The notes: a model not told the origin generated them from the sequence alone. Counted from the first letter of the whole stretch, positions 7,659 through 63,424 are shown. The stretch is DNA of 63,424 nt, filler included, from Stramenopiles sp. TOSAG23-6 (GCA_900128565.1; 9 parts of 9 records of this genome joined end to end with filler, not necessarily neighbours in it); one strand, 5' to 3'. Translations and numbers: made by a program.

Positions 7659-7717
7659 ATGAATTTTGGAAAAATATTTCAAAAAAAATTCGTTAGGTAC
7701 AAAATTTCGTACGAAAA
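7659..7717 (-). mobile_element. Introner 3' half (AT end), truncated by gap
   Basis: TTTTCGTACGAAATTTTGTACCTAAC...TTTTTCCAAAATTCAT. Confidence 0.8.
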
Positions 7718-7817
7718 NNNNNNNNNNNNNNNNNNNNNNNNNNNNNNNNNNNNNNNNNNNNTTAATTAATTAANNNNNNNNNNNNNNNNNNNNNNNNNNN
7801 NNNNNNNNNNNNNNNNN
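7718..7817. other. Artificial contig spacer; same spacer at 15533-15632, 23340-23439, 31145-31244, 38932-39031, 46707-46806, 54475-54574, 62243-62342
   Basis: Identical 100-nt N-padded TTAATTAATTAA linker (stops in all six frames). Confidence 0.97.
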
Positions 7818-7872
7818 AGGTACAAAATTTCGTACGAAAATAAATTCGAAATTGAAAAAAAATAAAACATAC
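7818..7872 (-). mobile_element. Introner 5' half, truncated by gap
   Basis: AAT|GTATGTTTT...TTTTCGTACGAAATTTTGTACCT. Confidence 0.8.
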
Positions 7873-8884
7873 ATTATCTACACCACAAATACTTCCCACT
7901 GAAGGGTATCCATATAATTTTGAAAAATATGTTGTACAGTGTACATTTCGTTAGTTACAAAGAATGCATTACAAAAAAAAAATCATTACAAAATGTCATA
8001 TGAAAAAAATAATACATTTAAAATTCATAATGAAAACGTACAACTCCATCTACGATTACAAATTTTCTCTCGGGAGTTTTGGCGTATAAATTCACTTTAT
8101 TGTGAACATCTTGAAGCATCTCAATAGATGATTTCGTTTCACCCGATAAGTATTTCCGAGTAAACCCAGAGTAAAACAAAATCGGTCCAATTGGACAACA
8201 ATCAATTCCATTCGATTGACAAAATTTCGAAATTAGTGTTGGTTTTTGACACTGCGTCGCAGGTTTAATATAAGCTATCTCTGAAGCTTTGAAACCTTTT
8301 CGTAATAAAGATCCAATTATACCAAGACATACAGTGCTTTTTCCAATCTGAGATCTGTTACCCGAAATAAAGAGTACAGTGGCCCTCGGAGATGGATCTA
8401 GATTCTTTAATTTTGTTTTTACACGTAATGAAGAGGCAGTTAACAATGCCTCTTTTGCGATATTGGATCCTTCATGCCATACCTTGCCATTATTATCTAA
8501 AAGAACTAATGATGGTAGTTGCATATTTGGATTCCCGTATTCGTTGTACAAACGCACACTTTCATTTTCTTTTTCAAAAGGAAGGGAAGGCCAAGATAAA
8601 CTGTAACAGAAACTATTCCATCCATCTCTATCATCTGGACAATCTTGCTTATCAAAACAACCTTTACTAGGAACACGGACAGAAACCATTTCAAAAGAAG
8701 TATTTGTGGTCGCTGAACGTAACGCAGCATCCTTCAAACGATTATAAGTGTCTTTGGTACATATCGCAGCTAAGGCACGGGTTTCAGGTGACCAGTGACC
8801 TCCGAACAAGATTCCTACATATCCAAGTTGACCTACGTGAGAGGAAGACGCAGCTTCAAAAACTGCTGCTAGTGATGCCTCCAT
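7873..8884 (-). CDS. Thioredoxin-like domain fused to a dethiobiotin-synthase-like (AAA_26-type) P-loop domain; exons 8884-8042 and 7911-7873; 3' truncated
   Basis: VGILFGGHWSPETR and LPSLVLLD (nucleoredoxin-like); SGNRSQIGKSTVC, YIKPATQC, VIVDGV|GYPSVGSICGVDN. Confidence 0.75.
7912..8041 (-). mobile_element. GT-AT introner, degenerate (130 nt)
   Basis: GTT|GTACGTTTTC...CTAAC...CAAAATTATAT|GGA; restores DGVGYP. Confidence 0.85.
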
Positions 8885-9251
8885 CCTAGAAGTCACGACT
8901 ATAGGGACAAGAAAAAAATATTCTTTATACAGGGAATGAAAAATAAATCTTATTCCTACATACAGGTTTGCCGGTACCGTATATATATATAATACGAATA
9001 AGTTGTTAGGCGGTCAATTAATTCACGATCAGATCAAGAAAAAAAAAGCGATTCGATTCGATTCATTCGAAACTGAAACCGTTATATATTCCTATCATAC
9101 TAGTGTCTCGTCAAGCTACCTGTAGGGTCCTCAAGTATATACAGTACCTACTGTAGTCTTTTGTGTACACGGACTACCGGTAAGGTTGACAGAGAGTATT
9201 ATAAAAGTATGTCTTCTCTTGGAATGAGGAAGCGATAGAGTGCTTATTATA

Positions 9252-11417: not shown

Positions 11418-11504
11418 ATTTATGATACTTTTATTTTATTAGATTTCGAGTTTCGCTATAAAAAAAAATTAGACACAACGTTAATTTAATACATTCATTG
11501 AACT

Positions 11505-13599
11505 TTAAACATTTGACCTGGGTGGAAGTGGCAAAAAATTTGGATTGTCTTTTGCTGCACCATTTTCAAGTTGTTCAGCTTTCCATGTTTCAATCTTAGA
11601 TGTTGGTGACATTGGCATGGTTTTCAATTGAACTGAGTTCCATTTATCAATCATCATTTTTGCACTTTTTGTTCCAATTCCCTTTAGTTTTGTCCTATTT
11701 GATTTGACACGGTTTTTATCTACACTATTGTTTTTCTTATGCTTTTTCTTATTAGAAAATTGACTTTGATTGTCAAGATGAAAACGTCTTAAGCGTGGTG
11801 ACGTCTGTGAGCCATCAAGACCACCTAAAAATATTTCAGGCTCAAAATCAAACAATGCTGAAGAGTCAGAAGCAATAATTGGCCTAATGGAAACTTTACC
11901 AACAAACGGAATGTATTGTGAATTTTTTTTTTTGAGTTTTTATTGTTAGGTACGAAATTTCGTACTAAAAAAATATTGGAAATGAATGATAAAAAAACGT
12001 ACATCATTTTTTCTTCTGATGAACTAAAAAGTTTAGCGGCTGGTGAAATTATCGAAGGAACCCAATCTTTCGAAAATCGTGGCATCATTCTCCCACCTGT
12101 TAGTGCAGAGTATGCAGCTCCAGTCAGAAGTTCACTTTCTAAGGTGAGTATAAAGTAAGCGTCTTTTGTATGAGAGTTACCACCGACAAATCGAATCCAT
12201 CTCTTACCACATAGTGCTGTTGCTAATGCAATATTATCAATACTCACAACACAATTATTATTTTCATCATCTTGAATATCTGATTTTTCTATATTTTGGG
12301 GGAGGTTAGGAGTAGACATAGCTTCTCTGTATAGAAGAATGGAACGCGAACGTATATCATCGACTGTTTTTCGTACTATATAATGTGAAAAAATATTTCA
12401 AAAAAAATTTCAAAATTTGTTAGGTACAAAATTTCGTATGAAAAAAAAATGTAGATAAAAATTGAAATGAAAACGTTCATTGGTTCAGACGAATATATAT
12501 TTCGATTTTTATCAAAACTTTGCGGTTTTTCAATTGATTCACTAGGATTAGTATTATTTGTTTGATCACTACATTTTTTACGTTTTCGTGTCAAGTTTTC
12601 ATTATTTGTTGGAGATGTGGGATTAGGGTTAGGGTTACAATTAGACCTTGAACCTTTCTTACCTGTAGTGCCTTTTGAATTTTGAATTTGCTGAGTATTT
12701 TTATCTCCTTTATTATCTGTCGGAGTATTTATTAAATGATCATTAATTTCAGATTTAATTCTTGTAGCTAATTCTTCTTTGATTAGGGAAGTAATTTCTA
12801 CAGGTGGCATTGTCAAAAGTTTTCGTAATACATCGCTTGGAATTTCAGATAAACACGAGGCTTTTTTTGATTCTTTTTTGTGTTTTTTGTCAATGTCTTC
12901 TTCTACAATAGTACTATTATTATCACTATCGGTGAAATTATTATCTTTCTTCCTTATATTGTTAATTTTGTTTTTCAATGCTAACATACGAGATTTATGT
13001 ATATCATATACTGAAGACTTTTTACTACGCTCGTCGGTTGATGTCTGTGAAGTCATCATTGGTTTGATTGTGTTTTTATCAAAAGAATTCAAAGATTTCC
13101 CTTTTTCTTTTATACTTGATGAATTTTTGATATTCATTATACCTTGTGACGAAATGCCTTTGTTACTTGAAGAACAAAAATCTGAGGGTTTTGCTGTTTC
13201 TTTAACTTGAACTATAGTGCTATTACTCGTGTCTCTACTAGTATGAGTTGTATTTGAAGTAGAACCAGGTCTAACCCAAGAAGTAACGCCTGTACTTTGA
13301 TTCCAAAAGTATTCTTTGCCAGAAACAGTATCTATCACTGAAGTCCATTCATCAGGAAGATCTAAAGTTTTGTTTTCATTTTTGAGTGAACCTGACGGTT
13401 GTCCATCTTCCACCTTTTTACTGTAGGCTTCCAGGCCTAATGAACTTAGTGATGTAGTTTTTGTCACCGAAGAAGCAGGAATTCCCGGATTTCTACCACC
13501 TGATTTATCTACAGTATTTGTATATCTACTCCTACTAAGTTGAGGTTTCACGGAAGTTGGACGTGAGCTAGGTCCAGAGCCTTTCTTGCGTCGACCCAT
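11505..13599 (-). CDS. WW-domain protein; exons 13599-12479, 12377-12003, 11910-11505
   Basis: LPDEWTSVID..SGKEYFWNQSTGVTSWVRP; removing two introner copies fuses three ORFs in frame. Confidence 0.75.
11911..12002 (-). mobile_element. GT-AT introner (92 nt)
   Basis: AT|GTACGTTTT...GTACGAAATTTCGTACCTAAC...CACAATACAT|T CCG; joins ORFs in frame. Confidence 0.85.
12378..12478 (-). mobile_element. Introner with GA donor (GA-AT, 101 nt)
   Basis: CCA AT|GAACGTTTTC...GTACCTAAC...CACATTATAT|A GTA CGA. Confidence 0.75.
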
Positions 13600-13874
13600 C
13601 TTTTATCATTTATTTTCTGCAAATTTCTCTACAATAATTTCGATTTTTTTCGATTTCTCGAGCGAGTCGATCTGTCACGCGACGCGCGTAAAATTCCTTT
13701 TTTTCGTGTGTTTTTTGCCGTTAAATTCTTGTTTCACATTGGTCGGTTAACTAATAATTTCCTCGTTTCCTCCAGTACCAGTGTACAACTGTCTTCGATC
13801 TGCCTTCTCTCGTTGAAAATTCTCACAACTCAATTGAAAACCACACTTTACGTACGCTAAAACAATCGATAACA

Positions 13875-14663: not shown

Positions 14664-14768
14664 CTTTGAACTTGAAATTGTTTGGAATTTTGAAATCTGT
14701 CAAAAATCATCAAAACAAACAATTTACTATATCTTTTTGATTTCATGTCCAGCTAGGGATTTATATCC

Positions 14769-15467
14769 TCAAGGTTTTGACATATTATAAAAATCTATAA
14801 TACCAGTAATATTTTTTTTATAAATTTCAAAGAAATGAAAGATATATAATTCCCTACGTACATTATTTACTGTAACTGTAAACCATAATCTGCAATAATA
14901 GGTAAATGGTCACTGGCAGTGGTGTACACTGGCCATGTATTTTGGAAAAATATTTCAAAAAAAAATTCTAAAACATTTGTTAGGTACAAAATTTCGTACG
15001 AAAAAAAAATCGAATTTAAAAAAATTAAAACATACATGCATCACAACAACGCATGCCCTTACTCCACATATGATCAGTACATGTTCCATTCCAAACGCTC
15101 AACGGAATGCTTCCATAAAAATGTATTGTGAAAAAAACAATTTTACTAAAAAAAATTGTTAGGTACAAAATTTCATACGAAATTGTTTTTTTAAAATTTC
15201 ATAATAAAAACGTACGCGATTTCTAGACCGTTTCCATCCGCTGTGTTCTAATAACTCATTCACACCATGTATTTTGGAAAAATATTTGAAAAAAATCTAA
15301 AAAAAATGTTAGGTACAAAATTTCGTACGAAAAAAAAAATTAAATTTGAAATTGTGAAAACGTACATCATATAGTGGAATGTTAGCTTCTTGAAAATCTT
15401 TTGAAATTGCAGCCCACTGAGATTTATTATAATCTTGGGAGATGGCTTGGTTGAAATCTCCACCAAT
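14769..15467 (-). CDS. Endonuclease/exonuclease/phosphatase (EEP) family protein, 3' part; exons 15467-15366, 15266-15216, 15120-15036, 14934-(stop uncertain)
   Basis: Spliced reading IGGDFNQ...YD|GVNE...RNR|FYGSIPLSVWNGTCTDHMW...DA|WPVYTTASDHLPIIADY. Confidence 0.85.
14935..15035 (-). mobile_element. GT-AT introner (101 nt)
   Basis: GCAT|GTATGTTTT...TTTCGTACGAAATTTTGTACCTAAC...CCAAAATACAT|GG. Confidence 0.8.
15121..15215 (-). mobile_element. GT-AT introner (95 nt)
   Basis: CGC|GTACGTTTTT...GTACCTAAC...CACAATACAT|TTT TAT GGA. Confidence 0.85.
15267..15365 (-). mobile_element. GT-AT introner (99 nt)
   Basis: GAT|GTACGTTTTC...GTACCTAAC...CCAAAATACAT|GGT. Confidence 0.8.
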
Positions 15468-15532
15468 AAGTATTGTAAAAAAATATTTCAAAAAAAAAAT
15501 CGTTAGGTACGAAATTTCATACCAAAAAAAAA
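15468..15532 (-). mobile_element. Introner 3' half (apparent TT end), truncated by gap
   Basis: GTACCTAAC...TTACAATACTT|ATT GGT GGA GAT. Confidence 0.7.
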
Positions 15533-15632
15533 NNNNNNNNNNNNNNNNNNNNNNNNNNNNNNNNNNNNNNNNNNNNTTAATTAATTAANNNNNNNNNNNN
15601 NNNNNNNNNNNNNNNNNNNNNNNNNNNNNNNN

Positions 15633-15686
15633 AAATTTCGTACCTAACGATTTTTTTTACTAAAAAAATATTTTTCCAAAATACAT
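15633..15686 (+). mobile_element. Introner 3' half, truncated by gap (duplicated at 46807-46860 and 54575-54628)
   Basis: AAATTTCGTACCTAAC...CCAAAATACAT|A GAT GCA ACA GAA (EF-hand loop end DATEL). Confidence 0.75.
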
Positions 15687-18105: not shown

Positions 18106-18142
18106 ATTATAAGTAAATACATTAATTTATTATCTACACATA

Positions 18143-23338: not shown

Positions 23339-23339
23339 A
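23248..23339 (-). repeat. 39-bp coding tandem repeat at contig end
   Basis: TGTGGAGATATGTCATCGACAAAGTTAGCTATATCCTCT; one more unit here than in the duplicate contigs. Confidence 0.85.
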
Positions 23340-23439
23340 NNNNNNNNNNNNNNNNNNNNNNNNNNNNNNNNNNNNNNNNNNNNTTAATTAATTAANNNNN
23401 NNNNNNNNNNNNNNNNNNNNNNNNNNNNNNNNNNNNNNN

Positions 23440-23494
23440 CGTACGAAATTTTGTACCTAACGAATTTTTTTTGAAATATTTTTCCAAAATACAT
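23440..23494 (+). mobile_element. Introner 3' half (AT end), truncated by gap
   Basis: CGTACGAAATTTTGTACCTAAC...TTTTTCCAAAATACAT. Confidence 0.8.
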
Positions 23495-25592: not shown

Positions 25593-27219
25593 ATGTTTTC
25601 AAGAAGCGCAAGCTTAATACGAGAGAAGGAAGTTTCTACATTTTTCGAAATTCCTTTGAGAAAGCATGTAGTGGCCACACTCAACTCATGGTTAGGTCAA
25701 GTTTCTGTTCCAAAAGGTAAAGAAAAAAGATGGAAGTATGCTCCTCACTTATCTCACAAGGATACACAACTAACCAAATCTTTAACTAAAGTCTCCAATG
25801 TAGACGACATCATCGCTTTAAGAGAAGCGAATCGTCCATATTCTACGTTTTTGAATAGTGTCTCAAACAGGAATTCGGTAAGAGCGTTACCATGGTTTCT
25901 AAAAGAAAGCAAAAATACAGACGCACGGAAGAGGTCTGCTCAAAATCGACAAAGTTCTTCTGCGTCAGTTAGTAAAGTTCCCCGAAGTTCTGGTAATTTA
26001 GAAGAGATTTCTGGGTTGTTCAAAAAAATGGCGGATCAATCGAATGCTAGCGTAGTACCAGAGTTATATGGAATAAATATCGATGTGCGCGATCATTTTG
26101 AAATTTTAGAAGAAGTAGGTCGCGGTTCATTTGGTGTTGTACGTGCTGCAGTCGTGCGAAACTGTAACACTGAGTATGCGATAAAAACTGTTTCTAATGG
26201 TTCCATAGAGAAACAAGAAGTTAACATGATGTCTCTTGTAATGGACGGTGGACTCTGTCCGCATGTATGTTTTTTTTTTTTATTTTATTTTGTTTTCATA
26301 CGAAATTTCGTACCTAACGATTTTTTTAGTACATTTTTTTTTACAATACATGTTAGTAAAGTAATAGCGGTATATGAGGAATCTGATAGATTACACATTG
26401 TAACAGATCTTCATAAAGGTGGTGATTTATTTGATCATATTTTGAAGCATGATGAGGAATCTTCAATGGGAATTAATGAAGAATGTGCAAAATCCTTAAT
26501 TTTGCAGATACTGAAAGCTGTGCAACATTGTCATCGTTCTGGAGTTGCCCATTTAGACTTAAAACCAGAAAATTTTATGCTAAGTCAGAAATCGTCACTC
26601 AACTATTTACCTAAAATTTCACTCATAGACTTTGGAATGGCTCATGGCTTTCCCTATACAAATGAAGGAAGTGAACAACGTTTAGCGATAAATAGGAGAT
26701 TGTACGTTTTCCACTTTAATTTTGAATTGTTTTTTAATAGTAAATTTCGTACCTAACGATTTTTTTTCTGTGGCATATTTTTCTACAATACTGATATAAA
26801 CTGAATAGACCAACAGGATCGGTTGCATATTGCGCACCCGAAGCATTAGATGGATATTTTTCTCCCTCCTCAGATATGTGGAGCCTAGGAGTAATGTACG
26901 TTTTCCTGATAACTTTAAAATTTATAATTTTTTTCATACGATATTTTGTACCTGACAAATGTTTTTACTAAAAAAAAATATATTTTCACAATACATGGCA
27001 TATGTCATAATGACTGGACATTCACCATGGTCACACGCTAGTGAAGTGTGTCAGATGAAGGATATATTCCGAGGTAGAATAAACCGTGATAGTTATGCAT
27101 GGAAATCACTGAGCCGCGAGGCAAAGCATTTTATAGATTCTTTGGTTGTCACTGACATTTCAAAACGACTCACTATCAGTGAAGCATTACAACACGATTA
27201 CATCAAGGAAGCATTATAA
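25593..27219 (+). CDS. CAMK-group Ser/Thr kinase with three introner introns (start uncertain)
   Basis: VGRGSFGVV, YAIK, HLDLKPENF, DFG, GSVAYCAPE, SDMWSLGVM|AYVIMTG, KRLTISEALQH. Confidence 0.88.
26265..26351 (+). mobile_element. GT-AT introner (87 nt, in frame, no stop)
   Basis: CAT|GTATGTTTT...CATACGAAATTTCGTACCTAAC...TACAATACAT|GTT; restores CPHVSKV. Confidence 0.85.
26702..26793 (+). mobile_element. Introner; acceptor either TG (26793) or an in-frame AG (26808)
   Basis: TT|GTACGTTTTC...TTCGTACCTAAC...TACAATACTG|A TAT AAA. Confidence 0.7.
26896..26996 (+). mobile_element. GT-AT introner (101 nt)
   Basis: GTA AT|GTACGTTTTC...GTACCTGAC...CACAATACAT|G GCA; the next AG lies beyond the conserved alphaF segment. 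Confidence 0.9.
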
Positions 27220-31244: not shown

Positions 31245-31342
31245 AAATATTTTTTGGGAAAAAATATTTCAAAAAAAAAATCGTTAGGTATAAAATTTCG
31301 TATGAAAAATAATCAAATTCGAAAATCATGATGAAAACGAAC
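31245..31342 (-). mobile_element. Introner, 3' end at gap
   Basis: CAT AT|GTTCGTTTTC...CATACGAAATTTTATACCTAAC. Confidence 0.75.
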
Positions 31343-32145: not shown

Positions 32146-35126
32146 ATGAATGAACACAGAGCAAATCGTGTAACTAGCGTCTTGGAAGAAAGGCTGCGTT
32201 TGAATAATGCTGTTGAAAAGAATATAGATTTGGGTAAACACGAAACTTTGTTATGTGGAGACATCAGCAAGTCTGTTGATATGAAGATTTCAGACGAAAA
32301 ATTCTTTGCTGAAGGAATTTATGAAGAGGAAATCAAAAGAACTAAACTGAATCAACCTGATGAAGATTTTGAGTTAAATGATATTGTATCACTTACTTCA
32401 GATCTATTTTTAGGCAACGATAATAACATAGACACAAAAGAATCTGGTTGTGCTAATGTTAAACAAAAACCATCAAAACCTTCAAAATCTTCCAAGGCAA
32501 TATCGACTACTGCAATAATAAATAGTTGCCTCAAGAAAAATGCTGCTATTGTAAGCTCTCAATTTATAGAAAATAATGAAAAAGATAATTGTGAAGTTCC
32601 CGATGAGGTTGTTCTTGACAACATTTTTTGATATTGATCACGTAAAGGTTTCAGAAAAATCTGAACAACTATCTGAAGAACAATCACACAAAATTCTCAT
32701 GAAAGCTTATAAAAAAGATATACATAATGAACATGTCACAACGGATGAAAATAAAAAACTCGTTGGTAAAACTAACGAAATCGAAGCGAAAAGCAATACA
32801 TATTTATCAAAAGTCACTCCAAAATTTATCCAAAGTGATTTTGAGGATGAACATAAATCACCTACTAGTGATTTTGAAGATGGCTATAAATCACTTACTC
32901 TTGATTTTGAGGATGAATATAAACCACTTACTAATGATTTTGAGGATGAATATAAATCACCTACTAATGATTTTGAAGATGACTATAAAGATAAACGGTT
33001 ATACGCATCAAGTGAATCTGATGATGAGATAACAATTCCTAGTAACAACACTTCTAGAAATCTAGACACAAGTAGTAATAAAGAAGACGATCTCAATGAT
33101 TCAAAAGATGTATGTTTTCATCAATAATTTTAAATTTATTTTTTTTGTATTAAATTTCGTACCTAACGAGTTTTCAATTTGACATGCTTTTTCACAATAA
33201 ATGAAGATACGATTACAAATGACACACACCTCAGAGATGAAGTGGAAAGTTTAAAAGAGCATGTCATTTTATTACAAGAAAGTGTTCACAAAGAAAGAAT
33301 GAAAAGAAAAGTTCAGCACGAATTGAGGGAAAAACAACTAAAAAGGCAAAGAATGGAATCAGCGATGAATTTAAGAAGACAACGGGAAGCATTGAATGAA
33401 TTATGGAGTACAAAGTCAAAACTAATTGTACGCGAATTACTCGATAAAGAAATCAAAAATCAGGAAGAAAAGAAACAAGCGGCGATACTTAAAACCAAAG
33501 CGGAAACTATAGCAGCATTCACTATGCAAATCATCTCACAAAAAGAACAATTTAAAAGTAGACAAAAAAGTATGTACGGACGAATGAAATTGCAACTTGA
33601 CCATTCAAATAAAAAATGTACTTTGCTCGAAACAAAAGTCGAAAAATTAGAAGATAGATTAATGAAACAACAAAAGACATACAAGGCTTATTTGGTAAAT
33701 TTGGTTAGTAGGATGAACCAAGACACAACATCGAAATATTTGAAGTCTAAGAAGAAAGCCTCTCATACTTGCGAAGTCAATGTGGACAATAAATATGCAC
33801 TATACGATAGTTGGTTTACGGACGCCATGGATGCTGCCATTCGAGAAGAAATACTCAAATGTAAAAATGTGAAATTTGATGAAGCACCAAAAAATATGGT
33901 AGAGTTCAAGACATCTTTTGATGTTTCTCATCCAAAAATAACAATACGTAGTACTAATACTGATGTGGACAAACAATGTACTGCAAGTAATAATAATAAT
34001 AATGTGGACAAACAATGTACTGCAAGTAATAATAATAATAATGATAATAATGATAAGAATGATAATAGTAATAATGATAATAATGATAATAATGATAATA
34101 GTAATAATGATAATAATGATAAGAATGATAATAGTAATAATGATAACAGTAATAATGATAATAGTAATAATGATAATAGCAATAATAATGATAATAATAG
34201 TGATAATAATATGGACAAAAATTGTGATGTGACTACTGGTAATACTGTATCTAGTATACGTAAGGACATATTTCGAGAAGAATCATCCGAGCGGAGGCGC
34301 CAGCAACATGAGAATTTATGTCAGTTTCTGAAAAAAAAGATGTCACAAAAACAAAATAAAAGTTCAGCTCCATTTTCACAAAATTTTGGGTTTAATGTCA
34401 ATGTAGCAAGACTTGTGATTCCTGAAGTAACTCCACCAAATGATTGGAAAGAGTTTGTTCAAAATAAAGACATTACACAAAATAAATCCAGTATTGTGCA
34501 AAACGAGCAACAAGGAAAATCTTTACATTTAGCTGTAAAAGAACGTCTTGCAAGAGATAAACTTAATTTAGAACAACGCCAACACTATCGCTTGGCAGAG
34601 TTGAGACGAATTGAACAAAAAGAACAACAGGAAAAAGAAATTGCGTTACGCACTGAAGGATATATGACCGACCGTATAGCAAAGTGGTCGAAAAACAAAT
34701 CCTTATCAAAAATGTTATCGACATTATACACTATATTGCCAAATATTGTCAGCAAAGGCAAACATGTCAGTGATAACTCCAGAGAAGAAATAAATCATGC
34801 GTATAAAGCTGCTTTAAGACGTATTCATCCTGATAAACTAAAAGCAAAAACAATGAGCATTCATGGAAAGCCTCTTTCTCACACAGACAAACTTCTAGCT
34901 GCTCGAGTTTTTGCAGTATTAATTGAAAAAAACAAATTCTATAAGTACGTTTTCATCATGAATTTCAAATTAATTTTTTTTTTTTTTTCGTGCGAAATTT
35001 TGTACCTAACAAGTTTCGAATTTAAAATATTTTTCACAATATAAACTTCGTTTACAGAGACGTGCTGAAAAAGGTCAATTTAGGTTCTCTTATAAACGTA
35101 AAAACAAGGTAAAAGCAAGAATTTGA
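32146..35126 (+). CDS. Large low-complexity/coiled-coil protein with C-terminal auxilin-type J domain; one frameshift near 32625 and two introner introns
   Basis: KMLSTLYTIL...AYKAALRRIHPDKL...AARVFAVL; ORFs join via introns 33110-33202 and 34945-35044. Confidence 0.65.
32835..32990 (+). repeat. 33-bp coding tandem repeat (DFEDEYKSPTN) x~5
   Basis: TGATTTTGARGATG recurs every 33 nt. Confidence 0.8.
33110..33202 (+). mobile_element. GT-AT introner (93 nt)
   Basis: GAT|GTATGTTTTC...TTCGTACCTAAC...CACAATAAAT|GAA; the next AG is out of frame. Confidence 0.85.
33988..34210 (+). repeat. AAT/GAT trinucleotide low-complexity tract (poly-Asn/Asp)
   Basis: Direct inspection. Confidence 0.9.
34945..35044 (+). 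mobile_element. Introner; acceptor AA (35044) or AT (35042)
   Basis: TATAA|GTACGTTTTC...GTGCGAAATTTTGTACCTAAC...CACAATATAA. Confidence 0.7.
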
Positions 35127-35349
35127 AAAAATAAAATTTATTCATTCAGAATTTTTTCAAAATTTTATTTTTCAAGTTATGATAAATGAATTCTCTGTTC
35201 TGCTACTTCTAGGGTTAGGGTTATCAAAAATGATATCCAAAATCAAAACTTTTATTCCTTTGTCACCAGAGCACCAGAGAATCCAGCAGAGCGAGAAGAG
35301 AATCTCTCTTTCATTACACAACAAAAGTGTGAGCTTAAAACCGGCTGCA

Positions 35350-38300: not shown

Positions 38301-38924
38301 AAAGCATAGACTTTCACTAGCATCTAATCAAGATGTACGTTTTCATCATTCATTTTTTACCTATTTTTTTTCATAGAAAATTTTGCATCTAACGATTTTT
38401 TTACTAAAAAAACTGAAAAAAAAAAATCTGTTTTACATTACATGGGAAACATTCAAATAGATCATCTGCACATAGTAAAATTTCTGAAACTGCTGGAAAT
38501 GGTCCCTCTAATCGCATGGATTTGATGGCCTCTAGACATTCAGGAATCCAATCTAATAGTAGACCTCCATGTACGTTTTCAAAAGTGAATTTCAAATTTA
38601 TCTTTTTTTCGTACGAAATTTTGTACCTAACGATTTTGGAAAAATATTTTTTTTTTGCACAATACATCATTCATTGTAAAAGAAGTAAACCAATCCCCAA
38701 CTCTGACAAATGTGTCTAAACGTCGATCTTCATTTGGTGCTACTATATGGCAAGGTTCGAAACATGCTAAGAAAACAACACAAAGAGTTAGAAATGAAAC
38801 TGTCAAGGAGTTACATAGATGTATGGACTCATTATGAATTTCAATTTTTTTTTGTTTTTTCTCGTTTTAAATTAAATTGTACCTAACAAATTTTGAATTT
38901 GACATATTTTTTCACGATACATGA
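35350..38924 (+). CDS. OSCA/TMEM63(CSC1)-like membrane protein with inserted WW domain; five introner introns; small internal N gap
   Basis: HYTVKV, LFGRFGKV, AFVVFD, KPPH|PSDVLWDNL followed by multiple TM segments; WEQG...GRFYWYNPETDESMWTCP. Confidence 0.7.
36409..36513 (+). mobile_element. GT-AT introner (105 nt, in frame, no stop)
   Basis: GAA AT|GTATGTTTTC...GTACCAAATTTTGTACCTAAC...CACACTGCAT|A CCA. Confidence 0.8.
36884..36978 (+). mobile_element. GT-AT introner (95 nt)
   Basis: CAT|GTACGTTTTC...CATACGAAATTTCGTACCTAAC...TACAATACAT|CCG TCA GAT; the next AG is out of frame. Confidence 0.9.
38335..38443 (+). mobile_element. GT-AT introner (109 nt)
   Basis: GAT|GTACGTTTTC...TCTAAC...TACATTACAT|GGG; joins the next ORF in frame. 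Confidence 0.8.
38571..38667 (+). mobile_element. GT-AT introner (97 nt)
   Basis: CCAT|GTACGTTTTC...TTTCGTACGAAATTTTGTACCTAAC...CACAATACAT|CA. Confidence 0.85.
38821..38922 (+). mobile_element. GT-AT introner (102 nt) apparently splitting the stop codon T|GA
   Basis: AGA T|GTATGG...TGTACCTAAC...CACGATACAT|GA. Confidence 0.65.
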
Positions 38925-39545: not shown

Positions 39546-39802
39546 CATTATTAGAAAAAATAAAAAATAGTGATGAATGCAGAATGAAAGTGTCTTTTTT
39601 TCTTAGTTTTAACAAAAGTTTAATGATTTTCTGTTTGTTTTTTCAGAATAAAATTCAATATAATAAAAAAATTTAATTCAATTTTCCCGAATTTCAAATT
39701 TAAAAAAAATTCTCATCGCGCGAAATGAAAAATACCAGCCTGTTTTTCATCTCTCTTATTTTACAATCAATTCAAATCAGATAATATTACGTTGATATAA
39801 CC

Positions 39803-42800
39803 ATGCGAACCTATGGAAAGCAGCGTCCTCGTGTTTCTAGTTATGATCACGAGGATCGTGGTTCATTGAAAGAGCTTAGACATTCTCCTGACAACTTTTG
39901 TTCTGATAGTTTGGATGACGGACAACAAGTTCGCAGAGTGAGGAAGAAGAAAAAGAAGAAGAAAAGAGCACGACAAAAACAAAACCAAAAGTTCGTGGAT
40001 AGTAATAGTGATAACAGTGATCTTGAAAATTTGTTTGGGGGTATGAGTACGTGTTTCGCTTCTTTAGATCTTTCTTGTTCGGACGCGACTGATCATTCTA
40101 TTTCTGATTACGAAGTCAAACCAAAACGTCAAGTGGGTAAAAAAACAACCAAAGTTTTTGGAAAAAGAGGACTCAAAACTAAATCAAAGGCTAAAAAACA
40201 AAGTAGTAGTACGTTATCTATCAGTAATAGGGAATCAAATGCTGTATCAACACGTAATAACAAGTCTAATGGGAGTGTTTTAAGAAAAACTGTCCCAGGT
40301 AAAAATGTAGGTACAAAAAATAATACCAAAATGTCTATAAAAAAAGACTCTTCCTTTGATCCAAATACTTTACGTACAGCTTCATCTGATGATATGCGAT
40401 TTATTTTAGCAGCTCTTGGATCGTGTGAAACTACACTTCCTGTACAGCCTATAAAAAATGAAATTGGAAATGAGTCTACATTAGTAAAGAATTGCAATAT
40501 TCCACAAAAAGATGAAGAATTAGTACAAGGTAAACCTTGTTTAACTAGTCTTTACGAGAGAGCTTTTGAATTATATCTTCCTAGTATTTGGACAACCCAA
40601 CGACAATTTCGTGTTTTATCATTTTGGGAGAGAATTGGATTACAACGAAGAATGTCAACATCATCTAGTTCTCATTCGAATAGTCATTCGATTATGCTTG
40701 AGATTAAGAAAGAACAAGTCGATAATTTACGTGAAGGTTTGAATGTCATTTTAAGTGAACGTGCTAGTGAAGCAAAAGCAGTTGCACAAAGTAAGAGAGT
40801 TGCAAGGTTAATATCAAAAAACACGAAAAATATCAAAACTACACAACAATTTGATGAATTGAAACAAACTCAGTCCATGCAACAATCGAGAGCAATAATG
40901 AGTCTTCGTCGTGCGTCCTTTGGAATTCCTCTTTTAGGATTAACTTTAAATGTAAATGGTCGGAGAGATTCTACAATTCAAAATAGAAACTCTCTACTTC
41001 CAAATAGAAAATCTCTACTTCCAAATAGAAAATCTCTACTTCAAAATCGAAAATCTATGGTACATAACCAAATCGATAGTGAAGTACAAGTATCTTCCCG
41101 CAGAAGTAGTTTATTGTCGTTAGGTGCTTTTCAACGTCGTTGTAGTTCTATTGGAATTTTAAGGCAGTCTATTTTACCAAAACAAATGCCAAACATTGTT
41201 GAAGAATCAATTTCAACTGATGAATTAGATGAATTTGATGAATGTTTAGAAGATAGCGAATCATTAGATGATAGTTTTGATGATAAAATATTACATGATC
41301 AAATGAATAAGGACGACATTCTCTCAAAAGAAACATCCAAAAATGAAAATATGAATATCAGTTTGAATGCATTCTGTATTTCTATTATTTTAGAATATTT
41401 AAATACAAATGAACTATTACATATTGCTCCTCAAGTCTCTCAGCTTTGGTCCCAATTATCGTCACAAGTATGGTCATGGAAATCTGCACAATGTCTAAGT
41501 ATAGAAAATACTGAAAATTCTGAAAATACTCTTTCATCTTCCATTGTTCTTCGATGTTGGTCACAAATGTTACAACAATTTCCGTGGGGTCGATTTCTCG
41601 CAGAAGGAGGTTTCAAAAAAGTATTTGAAGTTTGGGCAAATAAAGAATGTCGATTTGAAGCAATTGCTGTAATGGACTTACAACATATATGTCAAAATGG
41701 TAGTGCTTCTGTAGTACGTCAAGAAATTCATGCAGGTTTGTTATTATCTGAATTAGTCGATAATGAGATTTGTCCTCATTTTGTTGAATTATATCAAATT
41801 TTTCAGTTTGCATATGATGCCCCAAAACATTGTTGGGGATCACGTAAATGTCGTACACCTCTAGGTATGGAATGTCCATATTCCAGTGATTCTATTGATC
41901 AAAATAATACAATGATTCATGAAATGAAAATTCCTGAACCTCCCTCGAGTGATTCTCATCGAGCATGGCAATTTCTTCGGATGGAGTTGTGTGATGGTCA
42001 AGATCTTGAAGAATATCTCCGACAAGATCCATCACATCAAATTCAAGCAAGTCAATTACCTGGTATATTTTTACAAATGGTATCATCATTATATGTCTCT
42101 CGTATTCGTTTTGGTATGTGTCATTATGATATTAAACTTTTAAATTTTTTATTAAAATCAGAAGCCGCAGTTCAAAGAGATCGAAGAAATCCTACCCCTA
42201 ACCCTAATAATCAAAACAAAACATCTGTGATTTCGTATTGTGTTGAAGGTATACTTGAGCCAATCATGGAAGTACCCATTTCATCTTTATCATGCGGATA
42301 TGTAGTAAAACTAGCTGATTATGGTACAGTTGATATGAGTGAAGAAAATTCTGGAAAGCCAATTACTCATGTACGTTTTCATCATTTTTTTTCAATTTTT
42401 TTTTTCATACGAAATTTTGTACCTAACAAAAAACATTTTAAAAAAATTTTGAAATATTTTCATCCAATACATGAACATTTTACAACTTTAGAAAATACAC
42501 CACCTGATTTTCTTATTATTGGCGATTATGCAGCACAAGGTTTTGCTGCAGATACTTGGGGGTTAGGTTTGTGTTTAGTACATTTATTAACAGGTCATGT
42601 TCGTTTTCAACATTGAATATTTTTACATATATTTTTTTACTATGAAATTTCATACCTAACAAATTTTTCAAAATCCAAAAAAAAAAAAAATATTTTTTCA
42701 CAATATATGCTCCATATGAAGAAATACTCTCTCAGATTCATTGTCCTGAAGGGCCTTTTAAACGTGGATTATTGACAGCATGGTGTGATGGACATTTTGA

Positions 42801-43670
42801 AGGTCAAGAAGATTTTGGTACGTTTTTTATTACAAATTTCATTTTTTTTTTTTTTTTTTTTAATCAATTTTAAATTTTACATGTAAAATATTTGAAATAT
42901 TTTTTCACAATGATGAAGAAAGTCAATATAATGTAATTTATGATGGTGTTGAAGGTGATGATGATCAATTAGATACACTTTGTGATACATTATGGAGATT
43001 ATTAGTTCTACTTTCTCCTTCAACTTCTGATTTTGATAAAAAAATATGGTCAAAATCTTTGGCATCACCAAATAGAAAAATTCAAGAAAAGGGTGATGAT
43101 CATTCAGTATTAAAAATGATCAAAACATTGGTACAAAAAAAATCAAAATCTTCTGCATCTAAAAAATTACGAAAAGAACAAAAGATTTGGTCTTTATTTA
43201 AAGGATCTCATGTTTGTTTTCATCATTCATTTTTATTGTTTGTTTTTTTTGTTTTTTTTTTTGTTTAGTACAAAATTCTATACCTAACAAAAAAAAATCA
43301 AAATGTTTTCATCATTCATTTTTTACATTTATTTTTATAAAGAAAAAAAATTTCTTAACAAATTTCAAACTATAAAACATATTTTTTTACAATACATGAT
43401 ATAATGGTCACTGCACGCGAAAAAATGAAAGAACTTCCAGGAGGTGTAAAAAATACAGAAAATATAATACGTGGTTTACTTCATTTCTGTCCATCTAAAA
43501 GATGGACAATTAGAAATGTTTTACAAAGTGAAATGTTTTCTCATTTTCGAGGTTGTTATCAAAAAGAAAATAATGAAATGATTGAAAAAATTAATTGTGT
43601 TATTGGTGTAATCACTGAAGAGTCAAATGAAAAATGTAATGATGTATTGGATCTATTACCAAATATTTGA
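39803..43670 (+). CDS. Protein kinase with long basic N-terminus and F-box-like segment; four introner introns
   Basis: LAEGGFKKVF, HYDIKLLNF, KLADYG, ITH|EHFTTLENTPPD, DTWGLGLC..LLTGH|APYEE, LLHFCPSKRWT. Confidence 0.8.
42371..42472 (+). mobile_element. GT-AT introner (102 nt, in frame, no stop)
   Basis: CAT|GTACGTTTTC...CATACGAAATTTTGTACCTAAC...CCAATACAT|GAA. Confidence 0.85.
42599..42708 (+). mobile_element. GT-AT introner (110 nt)
   Basis: CAT|GTTCGTTTTC...CATACCTAAC...CACAATATAT|GCT CCA TAT; the next AG is out of frame. Confidence 0.88.
42818..42915 (+). mobile_element. Degenerate introner lacking the core; acceptor TG (42912 or 42915) or AG (42918)
   Basis: TTT G|GTACGTTTT...TTGAAATATTTTTTCACAATGATG|AA GAA. 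Confidence 0.6.
43212..43397 (+). mobile_element. Double-length GT-AT introner (186 nt)
   Basis: CAT|GTTTGTTTTCATCATTCAT...TACCTAAC...TGTTTTCATCATTCAT...TACAATACAT|GAT. Confidence 0.8.
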
Positions 43671-44849: not shown

Positions 44850-46619
44850 ATGAGATATAGCTGTCTTATCCATGTATTATTTTTATCAACACAATTATTT
44901 CTTTCGTGGCGTTGTATTTATTGTCAAATAGATGAAAGAAAAGAAACTACAAATGAGAGCGTAATTAAGGATATTCGAAATACTTGGAAGACAGAACTTG
45001 CTGGTACTGAAGATGCTGATAGCATAGGCTTAATGCAATGGTTAGAAGATGGTGGTGCCGATTTGTCCAGTGGCATACGCCTTGTACAATTTGATGGTAT
45101 GGGAAGGGGTATACTTGCTACACGGGATATCGCCAAAGACTCTTTGTTACTATCCGTCACCATGAAGCAGATTATTTGTCACCATACAATTGCAGCGTTT
45201 GTTAAGCAAGCAAAGTCAAGTAAATTACGGAAAGCTTTCAGGAATCTAAAATCTGATAATGAAACAGAACTAGTTCTTTTTTTGATGCTTCAAATAGCCA
45301 TCGGGCATGACTCTTATTATCATCCGTATATAAAAACATTACCGAAAAAAGTGTCATTACCAATTAATTTCTCTTCTGCTGAACTTGCCGCAGTTCAGGA
45401 TCAAGAAATCACGATGGCAACCAATGATCAAAAGAAACAACTACAAAACCATCATAAATCATTGTTAAAACGATTAATGCATTTATTTGGTCCTGATGGT
45501 TTTGTATCAATATTAAAAAATTCAAATCCAAAAGAAAAAAATGAAAAAAACGAAAAAAACGAAAAAAATAATTTTTCATATTGGTTAACATTTGATGCAT
45601 ATTTTTATGTATATGCACTAATAGGATCTCGTGCACTAACAATAGAGGGAGACAAGTATCTTGTCCCCCTGGCTGATATGACTAATTATGAACCTAATAT
45701 GGATGAATCATCACATTCTTCTGGATCTTCATTTTTGAAATATCACAAATTGGTGAATAATAACCCTAACCCTAATGATGCAAAAAATACAAAAAATACA
45801 AAAAATACAAAAGGAAAAGATTTTGGTTTTGTATTCAAAGTATTTGCAGATCGTACAACTTTAGCAGGACATCAAGTGTTTGAAGATTATGGAGAAAATC
45901 CAAATCGAATTTATTTGTTATATCATGGATTTGTTCCTACATTTCAAAATCCTTTTGATTGCGTTCCCGTTGAGCTTCCACCAATGTCAGTGGATGATTC
46001 ACCATTACTCATTAGAAAACGAATGTATGTTTTNTTTTTTTTNAANTTTTTTNGTCTAAANTTTTTTTTNCGTACGAANTTTTGTACCTAACAATTTTTT
46101 TTAAATTTTCAAATATTTTTCCAAAATACATGTTACTTTTATCATTCGTAGTTGATGTAAGTAGTATGATGAGTAATCCTACGCATCCAAGACAACTTCC
46201 TAAATTTTGTTTTACACCTAGTGAAGGACTTTTAGATCCTGCGTTATTTTATCTAAGAGTGCATTCGTTGAGTTTTGACGCAATTGATTCATGTTTACAG
46301 AAAGTTGAGGATCAAGCCAAGTCAGCTACAACTGTGGCAAAACAAGCATTAGAGATTTGGCATGGTTCATTTGATATAAAGACAAAACGAAAAAGAACAA
46401 ATGATGAATCTCAACATGTAATACGACGGGCTAAAAAATATGCAGCAGTAGAATGTGTTAGTGAAATTGCGACAGCATCGGGAACTCAAATGCAAAAAGA
46501 AGATGATGATATCTTGAATTTTTTCAGTAGGGCTGCTGAAGGGAAATTTTCAATGACAAAAGAAGATTTAGATTCAGATAAATTTGTTGACCAGCGAGTC
46601 TATGCAACCATTCACGATG
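44850..46619 (+). CDS. SET-domain lysine methyltransferase (SETD3/Rubisco-LSMT-like), 3' truncated
   Basis: GMGRGILATRDI, YHPYIKTLP, LVPLADMTNY, GHQVFEDYG..PN..YLLYHGFV. Confidence 0.85.
46025..46131 (+). mobile_element. GT-AT introner (107 nt, contains Ns)
   Basis: CGA AT|GTATGTTTT...CGTACGAANTTTTGTACCTAAC...CCAAAATACAT|G TTA. Confidence 0.8.
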
Positions 46620-46706
46620 GTATGTTTTATTTTTTTTTTACAGAAAAATCGAATTTTTTTTTTCGTACGAAATGTTGTACCTAACAAAAATATTACAAAA
46701 AAAAAA
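46620..46706 (+). mobile_element. Introner 5' part, truncated by gap
   Basis: GAT G|GTATGTTTT...TTTCGTACGAAATGTTGTACCTAAC. Confidence 0.8.
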
Positions 46707-60500: not shown

Positions 60501-62242
60501 TCGATTGTGGTTTGTGGTTAGTATTTTTTTGTATTTCACTCAACTTTGATTCCAACTCTACATTTTTAATTTTCATCAAACGAAGCTCTTCCATTTTTTC
60601 AGAGAATAATAACTTTTGTTCCATATTCCTATTTTCATATTTCAATGATGAAGATTCCAAACTTTCCTTCAGTTTTGAACTTAGTTTAAGGTCCATATCC
60701 TGCAAACTCTTCGCCAGCGCAGCTTCAGCTCTTATTTTCTCCTCTTTCAATGCTAGCCTATGTGTTTCCAATAATTGTTTTGTTTTATGTTTCAATGTAT
60801 TTTTAGCTATTATTTCGTTGTTTTTCAATAATTGTGAAGATTCTGAAAGACGATCTTCAAACTCAATTGTAGATAAAGAATACTTTTCAGTAAATGCCTC
60901 ACTAATACTCGAAATTTCTTCTTTGTTTGAATTAACAACTCTCGATAGTTCTTCTTCATAGGATGAGTGCACTTTAGAAAACTTTTCTTTTTCTTCCGTT
61001 AATTGCTTCAGAATTTCAATTCGACATTTATTTTCACATTTTTGAAGGCTTTCCTCAGATGATCTCTGTGCAAACTCCATACGAGATTTTATGTTTGCAA
61101 CAGCTTCATTTTTTTCATTATCTTTTTTACTCATCATTTTATGCTCCTTATTTATAGCGTTTACTTCATATAATTCGTATGCCTCCTCCACATTGTGCAA
61201 TTTTTGTGTTATGAGAGAAACTTCAGTCTGTGAGAATTTAGCTTCATCTGTCACATGGGCAACTGCCGATTCAAGTTTTTTACGAGATAATAGAATAGAA
61301 GTATCATATTTTTGCTGCAGACTTTTGATATTACTGTTTAAACGTTCCATGACATCATCGTTTTCATTACATTTACGTTGTAGAGACCGTAAACGTGATT
61401 TTGTTGAACTAACCTCGCGATGAGCAGCAGTGACATCGTTTTTCATCTTTTTATTCCGCATATTTAGTTCTTGTGTCTCTTTTCGATAAATTCCAGATAG
61501 TTCGCACATATCAACCTCTTTTGCCTTTGAAATCGATGCATTTTCTTCAATGAGTTTCATTTCTCGCTCTTTCGATTCAGCTAAAGCTTGTTCTACGCTT
61601 TGAAAAGACATCTCAAGCTTGGCATTTTCAGCTGCCACACGAGCTCTTTCGCGCTCGATAGGCTCCATAAGGAAAACTTTCTCGGCCGAAGCTCGTTGTT
61701 TCTGAGCACGAAGTAACGAGTGTAATAATTTGATTTCATCATTAGCTTGTTTCAATTCTTCTACAGTACTCTGAATTATACTCGCACTTTGGCGCCTTTC
61801 TTCCACCAACATTGAGTTTTTTGCTGCTAAAGCCAAATTCGACAAATGCAATTTTTGCTTCAAACTTGAAATAAGAGCACCAACACCAGCACGATGTACA
61901 TAAGAATTATTCGTAATAGTTTGTGTAGATGCAGTACAAGCGATAGACCTCGTGGACTTCCTGTAGTCTTGCATTTCATTCCTCTGAAGTTCTCTCTGAA
62001 CGTGTGATTCATTAGAAGATGAGCTTATATTTTTATGTATGGCATTTGAATCATTAATACAGTTATTATGGGTATTTGTACATGACTGCTCTATTACTTC
62101 TTGATCAAACATCTGCATTGTGATACTTTGCCTTAGAGCTCTCTCGGCAGCTATGCGTTGCTCTCTCGCTTGTCTCAATGACAATATTTGTGGAGATATG
62201 TCATCGACAAAGTTAGCTATATCCTCTTGTGGAGATATGTCA
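54575..62242 (+). repeat. Third copy of the same contig (CDS 54629-57047 + and 57085-62241 -)
   Basis: Same length (7668 bp), boundaries and ORFs as 46807-54474. Confidence 0.95.
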
Positions 62243-62342
62243 NNNNNNNNNNNNNNNNNNNNNNNNNNNNNNNNNNNNNNNNNNNNTTAATTAATTAANN
62301 NNNNNNNNNNNNNNNNNNNNNNNNNNNNNNNNNNNNNNNNNN

Positions 62343-62398
62343 TTTTGTACCTAACAATTTTTTTTGAATTTTTTTTGAAATATTTTTCCAAAATACAC
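62343..62398 (+). mobile_element. Introner 3' half (apparent AC end), truncated by gap
   Basis: TTTTGTACCTAAC...TTTTTCCAAAATACAC|GTC CAA. Confidence 0.7.
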
Positions 62399-63424
62399 GT
62401 CCAAGCATCTAAATATAATAATATGTATATAAGGACTGAAGATAAAGAACACTGTTTATTATGTATCTTTAAAACAGTTATTATTCTGCTGAAAGTTCCA
62501 TCTAACTGGTATTTGTGGGATATGTATGTTGTTATACTTTATTTTAATTTTTTTTAATTTTTTTTTTTTTTTTTGAATGTTTTGTGAATTTTTTTATACT
62601 TTATTTTAATTTTTTTTTTTTTTTTTTTTTGATTGTTTTTTGAATTTTTTTTATACTTCATTTCGTATCTAATATATTTCAAATGTACTTGTATTATTGT
62701 ACAATACATTTCAAGTGAACCTGAGTTTACATTATTTTCAGCATTTGGTAGCAATGGTAGGTTTTATTTTCTTTCAATTTCGAATTTTTTTTTTTTTTTT
62801 TCATAGTAAATTTCATACCTAACAAAAAAACCATATTTTGAAATATGTTAAACTATATATGGATTCTGAAAATAGATAATGTTGAGTATACATCTACTCA
62901 TTATTCGTCAAAAAAACTACATATTGTATATAATAAAAAACATAAAAAAGGAATGGAATTTTTTGGTGTAGAATCAAATTATTCAAACCCTAACCCTAGT
63001 TCAATGATGACGTCAACAAAAGTAAATGAAAATACATTTTGTAATTTTTCAAATATTTGTACTAGAACAAAAAATGGAACAAAACTGTCAGAAACAATGC
63101 CTGTTCGTTCCAATACTAAAAATACTAAAAATACTAAAAATACTAATAATAATTCAGTACAAGAGATAGTGCCTCATGTAGCAGATGAAAGTTGGTCTTT
63201 TTTTTTTATGTATGAAGATAGAGCAGGTTTATTCCAAGATTTAATTCTTGAACAAAAAAATATTGTACAACAAAAAACACGAAATAATTTTAAACCAAAT
63301 TTTTATTTTGTAGATTATTTTATAGAAAATACATTTGAAGAATTTGTAGCAAATGATTCAAACAATACAGAGGATGATAAAGTATTAGGTGGATTAGGGT
63401 TTGAAAAAACTGAAGAAAATTTAT
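62399..63424 (+). CDS. Internal fragment of an unidentified protein; exons 62399-62523, 62710-62756, 62861-63424
   Basis: Splicing two introners gives ...WYLWD-I-SSEPEFTLFSAFGSN-G-ILKIDNVEY... with the frame continuing. Confidence 0.6.
62524..62709 (+). mobile_element. Expanded GT-AT introner (186 nt)
   Basis: GAT AT|GTATGTTG...TTCGTATCTAAT...TACAATACAT|T TCA; internal tandem duplication. Confidence 0.7.
62757..62860 (+). mobile_element. GT-AT introner (104 nt)
   Basis: AAT G|GTAGGTTTT...CATACCTAAC...CTATATAT|GG ATT CTG. Confidence 0.7.

Follow-up and report, generated by a model that had tools for sequence, protein, structure and literature searches.

In this study we describe a family of introns that end in AT instead of AG, found in a stretch of DNA of 63,424 nucleotides (nt) from Stramenopiles sp. 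TOSAG23-6 (GCA_900128565.1), which is called the window below, at its full length. The family is real: it is introner-like, has a non-AG 3' splice site, and consists of copies of a repeat of about 95 nt that interrupt unrelated genes. The best explanation, to which we give a probability of about 0.8, is that the copies are spliceosomal introns derived from a short non-autonomous introner-like repeat, with a 3' splice site that is AU rather than AG. An initial annotation of the window had already proposed introners with an AU acceptor, and its sense-only repeat family within open reading frames (ORFs) and its GT...AT unit were borne out, while the mobility of the element and any change in the spliceosome are what we infer from them.

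The window is made of nine contigs of about 7.7 kilobases (kb), in descending length, joined by N44-TTAATTAATTAA-N44 linkers (7718-7817, 15533-15632, and 23340-23439 among them), so genes on separate contigs are not linked. Contigs 3, 7, and 8 (15633-23339, 46807-54474, and 54575-62242) share 7,668 bases at 100% identity, a redundancy of the assembly, so element copies in them were counted once and the unique sequence comes to about 48 kb. The census was drawn from a core-motif search, an nhmmer profile built from 12 copies, and copy-by-copy inspection of the sequence. It gave 23 complete copies, plus 8 distinct ones truncated at contig ends, in 13 genes, and these are the same numbers as in the initial annotation (Table 1). 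The core, TTTCGTACGAAATTTYGTACCTAAC, had 21 matches with up to 3 mismatches in the window and none in 100 shuffles, and the profile, a hidden Markov model check that had been suggested earlier, recovered the family on both strands of the window. All copies (31/31) lie in the sense direction of the host ORF (p = 5e-10) and all three intron phases are present, as had been claimed. The range given for the family also proved exact, since a truncated copy ends at base 7659 and the final intron ends at base 62860.

The repetitive nature of the family was also seen outside the annotated copies. At least 10 contig ends lie inside element copies, which is expected because repeats break assemblies. In the DNA run X3, bins with element cores had a depth of 340-21,649 and bins without a copy had 2.5-10.8, a depth that is not a copy number, and element words in this independent seawater DNA run were 100- to 1000-fold deeper than their flanks. 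Searches for the core found nothing in viral contigs or in contigs of GTDB genomes (0 matches) and one locus in metagenome contigs (L001:2475-2578, minus strand). This copy is complete (ACAT/GT...ACAT/GG; slashes mark junctions throughout) and keeps a 215-codon ORF, and its contig is otherwise without similarity to the window, which means that the family occurs in at least one further locus outside the assembly.

Alignment of 16 copies showed the conserved blocks GTAYGTTTTCAT, TTTTTTCRTACGAAATTTYGTACCTAAC, and AAATATTTTTYCACAATACAT, with variable T-rich spacers between them, a pairwise identity of 0.62-0.85 over aligned columns, and a median length of 101 nt. The repeat can be described as the donor GTAYGTTTT, the core with the branch motif, and a pyrimidine tract followed by YCACAATAC-AT, and the unit removed would run from GT through the terminal AT. 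Among the 26 copies with a 5' end, the donor is GTAYGT in 21, with G at +1 in 25, T at +2 in 24, and G at +5 in 25. The branch motif CTRAC was found in 19 of 20 introns, at a median of 40 nt (34-110) from the 3' end and at 34-51 nt in 18 of the 19, and a T-rich pyrimidine tract is seen ahead of the 3' end, so the normal donor and branch point described before held up. Thus donor, branch motif, and pyrimidine tract are those of canonical U2-type introns, and the terminal AG is missing: the 3' terminal column is AT in 24 of the 28 copies with a 3' end and in 20 of the 23 complete copies, which agrees with the earlier count. The three complete copies without AT are 26702-26808, 34945-35044/35057, and 42818-~42911, and an AG acceptor is used in one copy of the family, possibly two. 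Position -2 is A in at least 26 of 28 copies, and the terminal column reads AT, AG, or perhaps AA or AC (34945 and 62398). The downstream exon starts with G in 16 of 28 copies.

Excision of the GT..AT unit restored the coding frame. It joined the longest flanking ORFs in 16 of the 18 AT-ending copies; the 17th (15035-14935) was in frame by a chain model and the 18th (38821-38922) has just 9 nt downstream. Frame restoration in 16/17, against a chance of 1/3, corresponds to a binomial probability of 2.7e-7. On contig 5 a single frame stayed open for about 830 codons across four junctions, in the kinase gene one frame stayed open across three junctions, and the chain model of the EEP-like gene gave a single open frame through three introns, ending ...SDHLPIIADY. 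The AGs nearest to family copies were out of frame or would delete residues, as the initial annotation had stated for its four restored motifs.

Protein homology located three junctions exactly. Excision of 8041-7912 gave VIVDGV/GYPSVGSICGVDN, which is colinear and gap-free with DGVGYPAVGSICGVSN in all 13 homologues of the DRTGG/AAA_26 protein that were aligned (of 51 matches), so the proposed restoration of DGV/GYP was confirmed. At the kinase junction 26896-26996, which was said to restore SLGVM/AYVIMTG, exon 3 ends on Pkinase position 185, the codon that the intron divides matches 186, and the next exon continues with 187 and 188, so this one also stood. In the DHHC palmitoyltransferase gene, intron 1828-1729, which lies outside the family, ends GAAAT with no AG nearby; exon 1 ends on profile position 32 and exon 2 begins, with the D of DHYCPW, on 33. 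Two further restorations stood in part. LLTGH/APYEE (42599-42708) is in frame, and the exon ahead of it gave a weak, sub-threshold match to Pkinase 160-194 (E 0.055). PPH/PSDVLWDNL (36884-36978) has the ORF continuity listed in Table 1 and neither a Pfam family nor a homologue: the exon 36979-38334 gave 0 matches at E ≤ 0.001 in a phmmer search of 1.84 billion representative proteins, so this junction rests on ORF continuity and not on conservation. This exon of 452 residues encodes a multi-pass membrane-like protein and looks like an orphan gene. Pfam searches of the EEP-like exons (21-34 amino acids) and of exon 42709-42816 gave no match, so the junctions at 15365, 15215, and 15035 are placed by frame alone.

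RNA and DNA runs were compared with the window for one contig (contig 5, 31245-38931), using three metatranscriptomes and one metagenome (X3). Exon coverage in the metatranscriptomes was low, with a depth of 1-3. In the polyA run X9, a 151-nt contig matched 36265-36408 and then had 7 unmatched letters, and a second contig had 8 unmatched letters and then matched 36512-36654. The spliced junction ...GAAAT/ACCAGG predicts both of these boundaries at intron 36409-36513; the second contig starts matching at 36512 and not at 36514 because the exon-final AT matches the intron-final AT, and at 36511 the intron base (C) differs from the exon A. An unspliced RNA or DNA contig would extend into the intron by up to a word length, and a contig of DNA run X3 spans 36366-36936 uninterrupted, intron included. 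A third X9 contig matched 38675-38820, followed by 26 unmatched letters, and thus ends at the donor of the last intron, but this end is one base short of the G that the spliced product would share, so the 26 letters may have another origin, for example a poly(A) tail. The RNA evidence is therefore thin and supports one intron (36409-36513) and no more. The independent DNA of X3 matches the terminal AT of the introns that it covers, so AT is not an assembly error, and no DNA joint that removes an intron was present among the X3 joints listed, which is a weak absence. A short-protein search for spliced RNA contigs with exon 36515-36883 as query gave no match.

Table 1 Copies of the element and other introns in the window (slashes mark exon-intron junctions; joined lengths are those of the flanking ORFs)
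Feature	Position	Strand	Length (nt)	Description
Diverged copy	7912..8041	-	130	GTACGT...TATAT; upstream exon ends GTT, not AT; weak nhmmer matches
Copy	11911..12002	-	92	AT/GTACGT...ACAT; phase 2; joins 131 and 134 codons
Copy	12378..12478	-	101	Donor GAACGT (GA..AT); phase 2; joins 374 and 183 codons; AG 2 nt downstream out of frame
Copy	14935..15035	-	101	Phase 1; last intron of EEP-like gene
Copy	15121..15215	-	95	Upstream exon ends GC; in frame in three-intron chain; AGs at +11 and +23 out of frame
Copy	15267..15365	-	99	Phase 0; in frame in three-intron chain
Copy	26265..26351	+	87	Protein kinase gene; phase 0; joins 245 and 134 codons; flanking exons map to Pkinase 1-41 and 62-151
Copy	26702..26808	+		AT column is TG (26792-26793); AG at 26807-26808, 15 nt on, used; GT..AG join ...RR/LPTGSVAYCAPE in frame; exon 3 maps to Pkinase 158-185
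Copy	26896..26996	+	101	Phase 2; ATG codon split AT/G
Copy	33110..33202	+	93	Ends AAAT; joins 180 and 613 codons
Copy	34945..35057	+		AA at AT column (35043-35044); upstream exon also ends TATAA
Copy	36409..36513	+	105	Ends GCAT; intron with RNA support
Copy	36884..36978	+	95	ACAT/GT...ACAT; joins 291 and 465 codons
Copy	38335..38443	+	109	Joins 476 and 91 codons; in the four-junction frame of ~830 codons
Copy	38571..38667	+	97	Phase 1; frame evidence
Copy	38821..38922	+		Donor GTATGG; splicing gives a T/GA stop; 9 nt of contig left after it
Copy	42371..42472	+	102	In frame; itself stop-free
Copy	42599..42708	+		Donor GTTCGT; ends ATAT; in frame
Copy	42818..42911	+		Without core; upstream exon ends TG; end at ~42911
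Copy	43212..43397	+	186	Internal duplication; GTTTGT...ACAT; joins 116 and 90 codons
Copy	46025..46131	+	107	Contains single Ns; SET-domain gene; joins 402 and 183 codons
Diverged copy	62524..62709	+	~186	T-rich; internal duplication; AT/GTATGT...ACAT; weak nhmmer match (E 0.16)
Copy	62757..62860	+		Donor GTAGGT; ends TATAT; upstream exon ends TG; joins in frame to an ORF of at least 187 codons reaching the window end
Cut copy, 3' part	7659..7717	-		Contig end; ends TTCAT
Cut copy, 5' part	7818..7872	-		Contig end; AT/GTATGT
Cut copy, 3' part	15468..15532	-		Contig end; AT column is TT
Cut copy, 3' part	15633..15686	+		Contig start; identical duplicates at 46807-46860 and 54575-54628
Cut copy, 3' part	23440..23494	+		Contig start
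Cut copy	31245..31342	-		Ends just short of its own 3' end; AT/GTTCGT
Cut copy, 5' part	46620..46706	+		Contig end; upstream exon ends TG
Cut copy, 3' part	62343..62398	+		Contig start; AT column is AC
GT..AT intron outside family	1729..1828	-	100	DHHC palmitoyltransferase gene; missed by family profile; outside the range given in the initial annotation
Ordinary GT..AG intron	2972..3113	+	142	Proteasome beta-subunit gene; not family

Several points weigh against spliceosomal removal of a mobile repeat at an AU site. The RNA evidence consists of three contigs with a depth of 2-3 from one polyA metatranscriptome, whose unmatched letters were not read, and no junction-spanning joint was present among the joints listed in the RNA comparison of contig 5. 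The ratio of element depth to exon depth in RNA was of the same order as in DNA, so the libraries contain unspliced RNA or contaminating DNA. Taking out the insert and one repeat would restore the frame after any clean insertion with a duplication, so the frame fixes insertion boundaries and not splice sites. Some copies also fit poorly: the acceptor of the copy at 34945 is either AA (35044) or AG (35057), both of which stay open to a stop (27 or 18 codons); the frame of the copy at 42818 needs GT..TG, GT..CA, or GG..AT and not an in-frame GT..AT; and the donor of the copy at 12478 is GA. At 8041 the copy stands after GTT in a conserved V codon, so its terminal AT is not a duplicate of an upstream AT. 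In addition, no clear terminal inverted repeat (ATGTA and TACAT alone) and no autonomous element was seen for the family in the window.

The exon sequence ahead of the copies, on which the initial annotation did not remark, raises the question of register. The upstream exon ends with AT in 19 of 26 copies (AT frequency in the window 0.097, p = 2e-14), which gives the structure AT/GT...AT/, often with CAT or ACAT on both sides, so the boundaries of those copies can be shifted by two bases, and GT-AT and AT-AC give the same mRNA. AT-AC is a known non-canonical pair that can be processed by both spliceosomes, and the same introns cut two bases to the left would read AT/ATGTAYGT...CAATAC/AT, with AT and AC termini appearing on the shift. 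This register is helped by the exonic AT itself, by AC at -4/-3 in most copies, and by the start of the X9 RNA contig at 36512, which fits both registers. But four GT..AT introns without an upstream AT, namely 8041 (TT, verified by homologues), 15215 (GC), 62757 (TG), and the DHHC intron 1828 (TG), restore frame or homology as GT..AT, and since the exon ends GC at 15215, GT..AT is the sole possible register there. The copy at 42818 also lacks the upstream AT (TG) and has AT at the 3' consensus column, and the one at 46620 follows TG with its 3' end cut off. Moreover, -4/-3 varies (AC, GC, AA, AT, and TT) against the nearly fixed AT at -2/-1 (24/28), so copies that end GCAT, AAAT, ATAT, or TTAT would become AT-GC, AT-AA, or AT-AT introns. 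The U12 consensus has an ATATCC donor and an TCCTTAAC branch site 10-15 nt from the 3' end, whereas the family has no ATATCC donor, its GTAYGT hexamer would fall at +3 to +8, and its CTAAC branch motif is some 40 nt away from that end. We therefore consider AT...AC cutting improbable and favour the GT-AT register, on the basis of the copies without an upstream AT, the variation at -4/-3, GTAYGT at the place of a donor, and the distant branch motif.

A shade less probable is that no mobile element is involved, that the introns are old and ordinary, and that their splicing signals are long and rigid, as in some intron-poor protists, so that the similarity reflects constraint. The most conserved blocks are indeed the donor, the branch region, and the 3' tract, pairwise identity is just 0.62-0.85, and neither a transposase nor a clear inverted repeat was found in the window. 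However, the 25-nt core, at 0-3 mismatches, contains a 12-nt stretch (TTTCGTACGAAA), ahead of the branch motif, that is not known to act in splicing, the assembly breaks at copies and word depth there is very high, an internal element fragment lies in a 3' untranslated region, the preference for an AT target is far from chance, and the proteasome intron of the window has none of these blocks.

Least probable of all, in our view, are insertions like miniature inverted-repeat transposable elements (MITEs) that are not precisely removed from RNA, leaving disrupted genes or cryptic AGs, or excision at the DNA level as in ciliates, whose eliminated sequences are TA-bounded with a 2-nt direct repeat of which one copy is kept: restoration of the frame on removal is what a clean insertion with a 2-nt duplication would give, a 2-nt repeat with one copy retained is the ciliate signature, and element words are abundant in RNA libraries, but the copies are all in sense with donor and branch motif where DNA elimination is independent of orientation, 13 genes, some of them conserved, would be disrupted, splicing at the nearest AGs would shift the frame or remove conserved residues, the RNA contigs break off at the expected boundaries and go on with non-genomic letters, and X3 DNA carries the interrupted form, with no joined form among the joints listed.

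For the explanation that we prefer, spliceosomal removal of an introner-like repeat, a possible route is as follows. The copies would have arisen by transposition of a non-autonomous element; most stand directly after an exonic AT, and the removed unit looks like the element plus one 2-nt target duplicate. AT would then be the target duplication, and the spliceosome would remove the element with one duplicate. Possible signs of transposition are the 2-nt AT repeat at 19/26 copies (which could be a duplication or a target preference), the ATGTA and TACAT ends, and the homologous proteins that read through the 8041 site. Alternatively, the element may carry its own AT and prefer to land after AT, or copies may come from reverse splicing into AT/G sites. 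Between the branch motif and the 3' end each copy has 3-14 other AT dinucleotides, so AT alone cannot define the site, and the YCACAATACAT context or the distance from the branch must contribute; the site may be recognised through an extended ACAAUACAU context or through branch-point distance. AG occurs 4-13 nt past the branch A in 5 of 19 copies and 55 nt past it in one more (43212), and as the copies may simply owe their shortage of AG to the family consensus, we gave it no weight.

AG acceptors still work in this genome, as seen at introns 2972-3113 and 26702-26808. The proteasome exons around 2972-3113 map to profile positions 6-34 and 39 onwards, and an AT 2 nt past the AG breaks the frame. 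On the explanation preferred here, the same spliceosome uses AG where AG is the site, and AT also in at least one intron outside the family. In the second catalytic step of splicing, the A at -2 interacts with the branch adenosine and the -1 G with the G of the donor. We speculate that an AU site would keep A at -2 and change only the partner of G at +1, and such a contact scheme would explain why AT and AG, and perhaps AA or AC, occur at the terminal column with -2 nearly always A.

Some other sites in the window deserve mention. A scan of all other GTAYG[TG] sites in the window gave no additional introns: 13855 is a promoter region, 28925 is at a C-terminus, 35936 is the frame break at a run of Ns, and 3516 is plain coding sequence. 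The copy at 42371-42472 has no stop in the host frame, so a 943-codon ORF (39785-42616) continues through it, and its retention would add 34 residues with no truncation. In the 3' untranslated region of the radial-spoke gene (5650-5790, minus strand) there is an element-core fragment without donor and without 3' block, flanked by two direct repeats of 31-33 nt (GGTAATGATGTTATAC... and GATAATGATGTTATAC...).

The host, which is uncultured, reads as a low-GC, flagellated, stramenopile-like marine protist, as far as can be told from its sequence. GC content is 28-39%, and the eukaryotic genes of the window encode a radial spoke head protein, RNA polymerase III Rpc34, a proteasome beta subunit, a DHHC palmitoyltransferase, protein kinases, and SET, WW, Tudor, and EF-hand proteins. 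The closest named relatives of the radial-spoke protein are from oomycetes and a bicosoecid (35-37% identity) and those of the DRTGG/AAA_26 protein are from oomycetes (53-65% identity), and sequence of the window is present in seawater metagenomes and metatranscriptomes. Each of contigs 3, 7, and 8 has an 813-amino-acid TPR/EF-hand ORF and, on the opposite strand, an ORF of about 1,733 amino acids without a Pfam family. A run of 29 Ns in coding sequence (35981-36009) divides what is probably a single ORF into two overlapping ones (35113-36150 and 35957-36940), and DNA run X3 crosses this gap with 21 fewer letters. At 37589-37592, one X7 RNA contig has 56 extra letters relative to the window, which could be strain variation or a tandem duplication. 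An Rfam search of the whole window gave 0 families.

The kind of element is already known, both as introners and as lineages with non-canonical introns derived from transposons. As in other introners, near-identical introns stand in unrelated genes, and the copies are in sense with splice signals and precise junctions. The available text of PMC11282704 describes how, in Micromonas pusilla and Aureococcus anophagefferens, introners that are short and non-autonomous supply introns to many unrelated genes; the element gives one splice site and the duplicated target the other, and the element is removed with one duplication. According to the same text, those introners have 3-nt duplications, terminal inverted repeats, and an AG 3' site, whereas our family has a 2-nt repeat (AT), an AT 3' site, and a terminal palindrome of 5-6 nt (ATGTA/TACAT) alone. 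The introns of Fritillaria borealis (AG-AC and AG-AT) are also transposon-derived, with a non-AG 3' site that mirrors the upstream exon, a U2-type spliceosome, and rare GT-AG introns that persist, as far as the available text of PMC11282704 and PMC7789003 goes, and exonic TAC precedes the AC-ending introns (available text of PMC11282704). They begin with AG, show many dinucleotide pairs, and belong to an animal, unlike our family, which is uniformly GT-AT with a conventional donor and branch.

Two other lineages share part of the pattern. The introners of Amoebophrya, in what the available text of PMC7789003 reports, are repeated introns of a marine protist with direct repeats that overlap the boundaries and non-GT-AG ends, but they have hairpin inverted repeats of 8-20 nt, direct repeats of 3-5 nt, no fixed termini, and no U1 detected. 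The intron ends of our family are not complementary as in hairpin-type introns: RNAalifold on the 16 copies gave no pairing of intron ends and a 5-pair internal stem alone (-1.38 kcal/mol), the 12-nt palindrome within the core has one-sided changes with no compensation, and the donor looks U1-compatible. Euglenid nonconventional introns have duplication-like junction repeats, non-canonical ends, and a suspected MITE origin, but in the available text of PMC11282704 they lack a pyrimidine tract and their ends pair, whereas our family has the tract and no conserved pairing. The introners of Pelagomonas all end in AG in the available text of 10.1101/2021.10.25.465678. Large introner surveys, as the available text of PMC12130899 presents them, work from annotated genomes, and curation in that survey kept families with familiar splice sites or RNA support. 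No report of a GT-AT introner family was found in the full-text literature; the supplementary lists of the surveys, which lay outside this search, could name the lineage.

What sets this family apart is the uniform GT-AT ends, the conventional donor and branch, the lack of intron-end pairing, and the stramenopile-like host. The terminal AG of introns is among the most invariant signals of eukaryotic genes, and to our knowledge lineage-wide departures from it are few and come with a changed donor, with hairpins, or with great heterogeneity. GT-AT introns that keep a textbook donor and branch, in a genome that also has ordinary GT-AG introns, therefore isolate the 3' site as the sole altered variable. 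This makes a clean natural system for studying the choice of site in the second step, the possible replacement of G by U at -1 opposite the donor G, and the possible setting of the acceptor by a duplicated target. Most genes of this organism and of its relatives will come out broken in single-cell and metagenome assemblies when gene finders accept only GT/GC-AG introns. It is possible, although we hold it at somewhat less than even odds, that AU ('A plus a context') is the majority acceptor genome-wide, imposed by the AT duplication of the invading element, in thousands of introners and in unrelated introns, such as the DHHC one, as well. If this is true, the preference of a transposon for its target site would have changed the splice-site code of its host without altering the conventional recognition of donor and branch.

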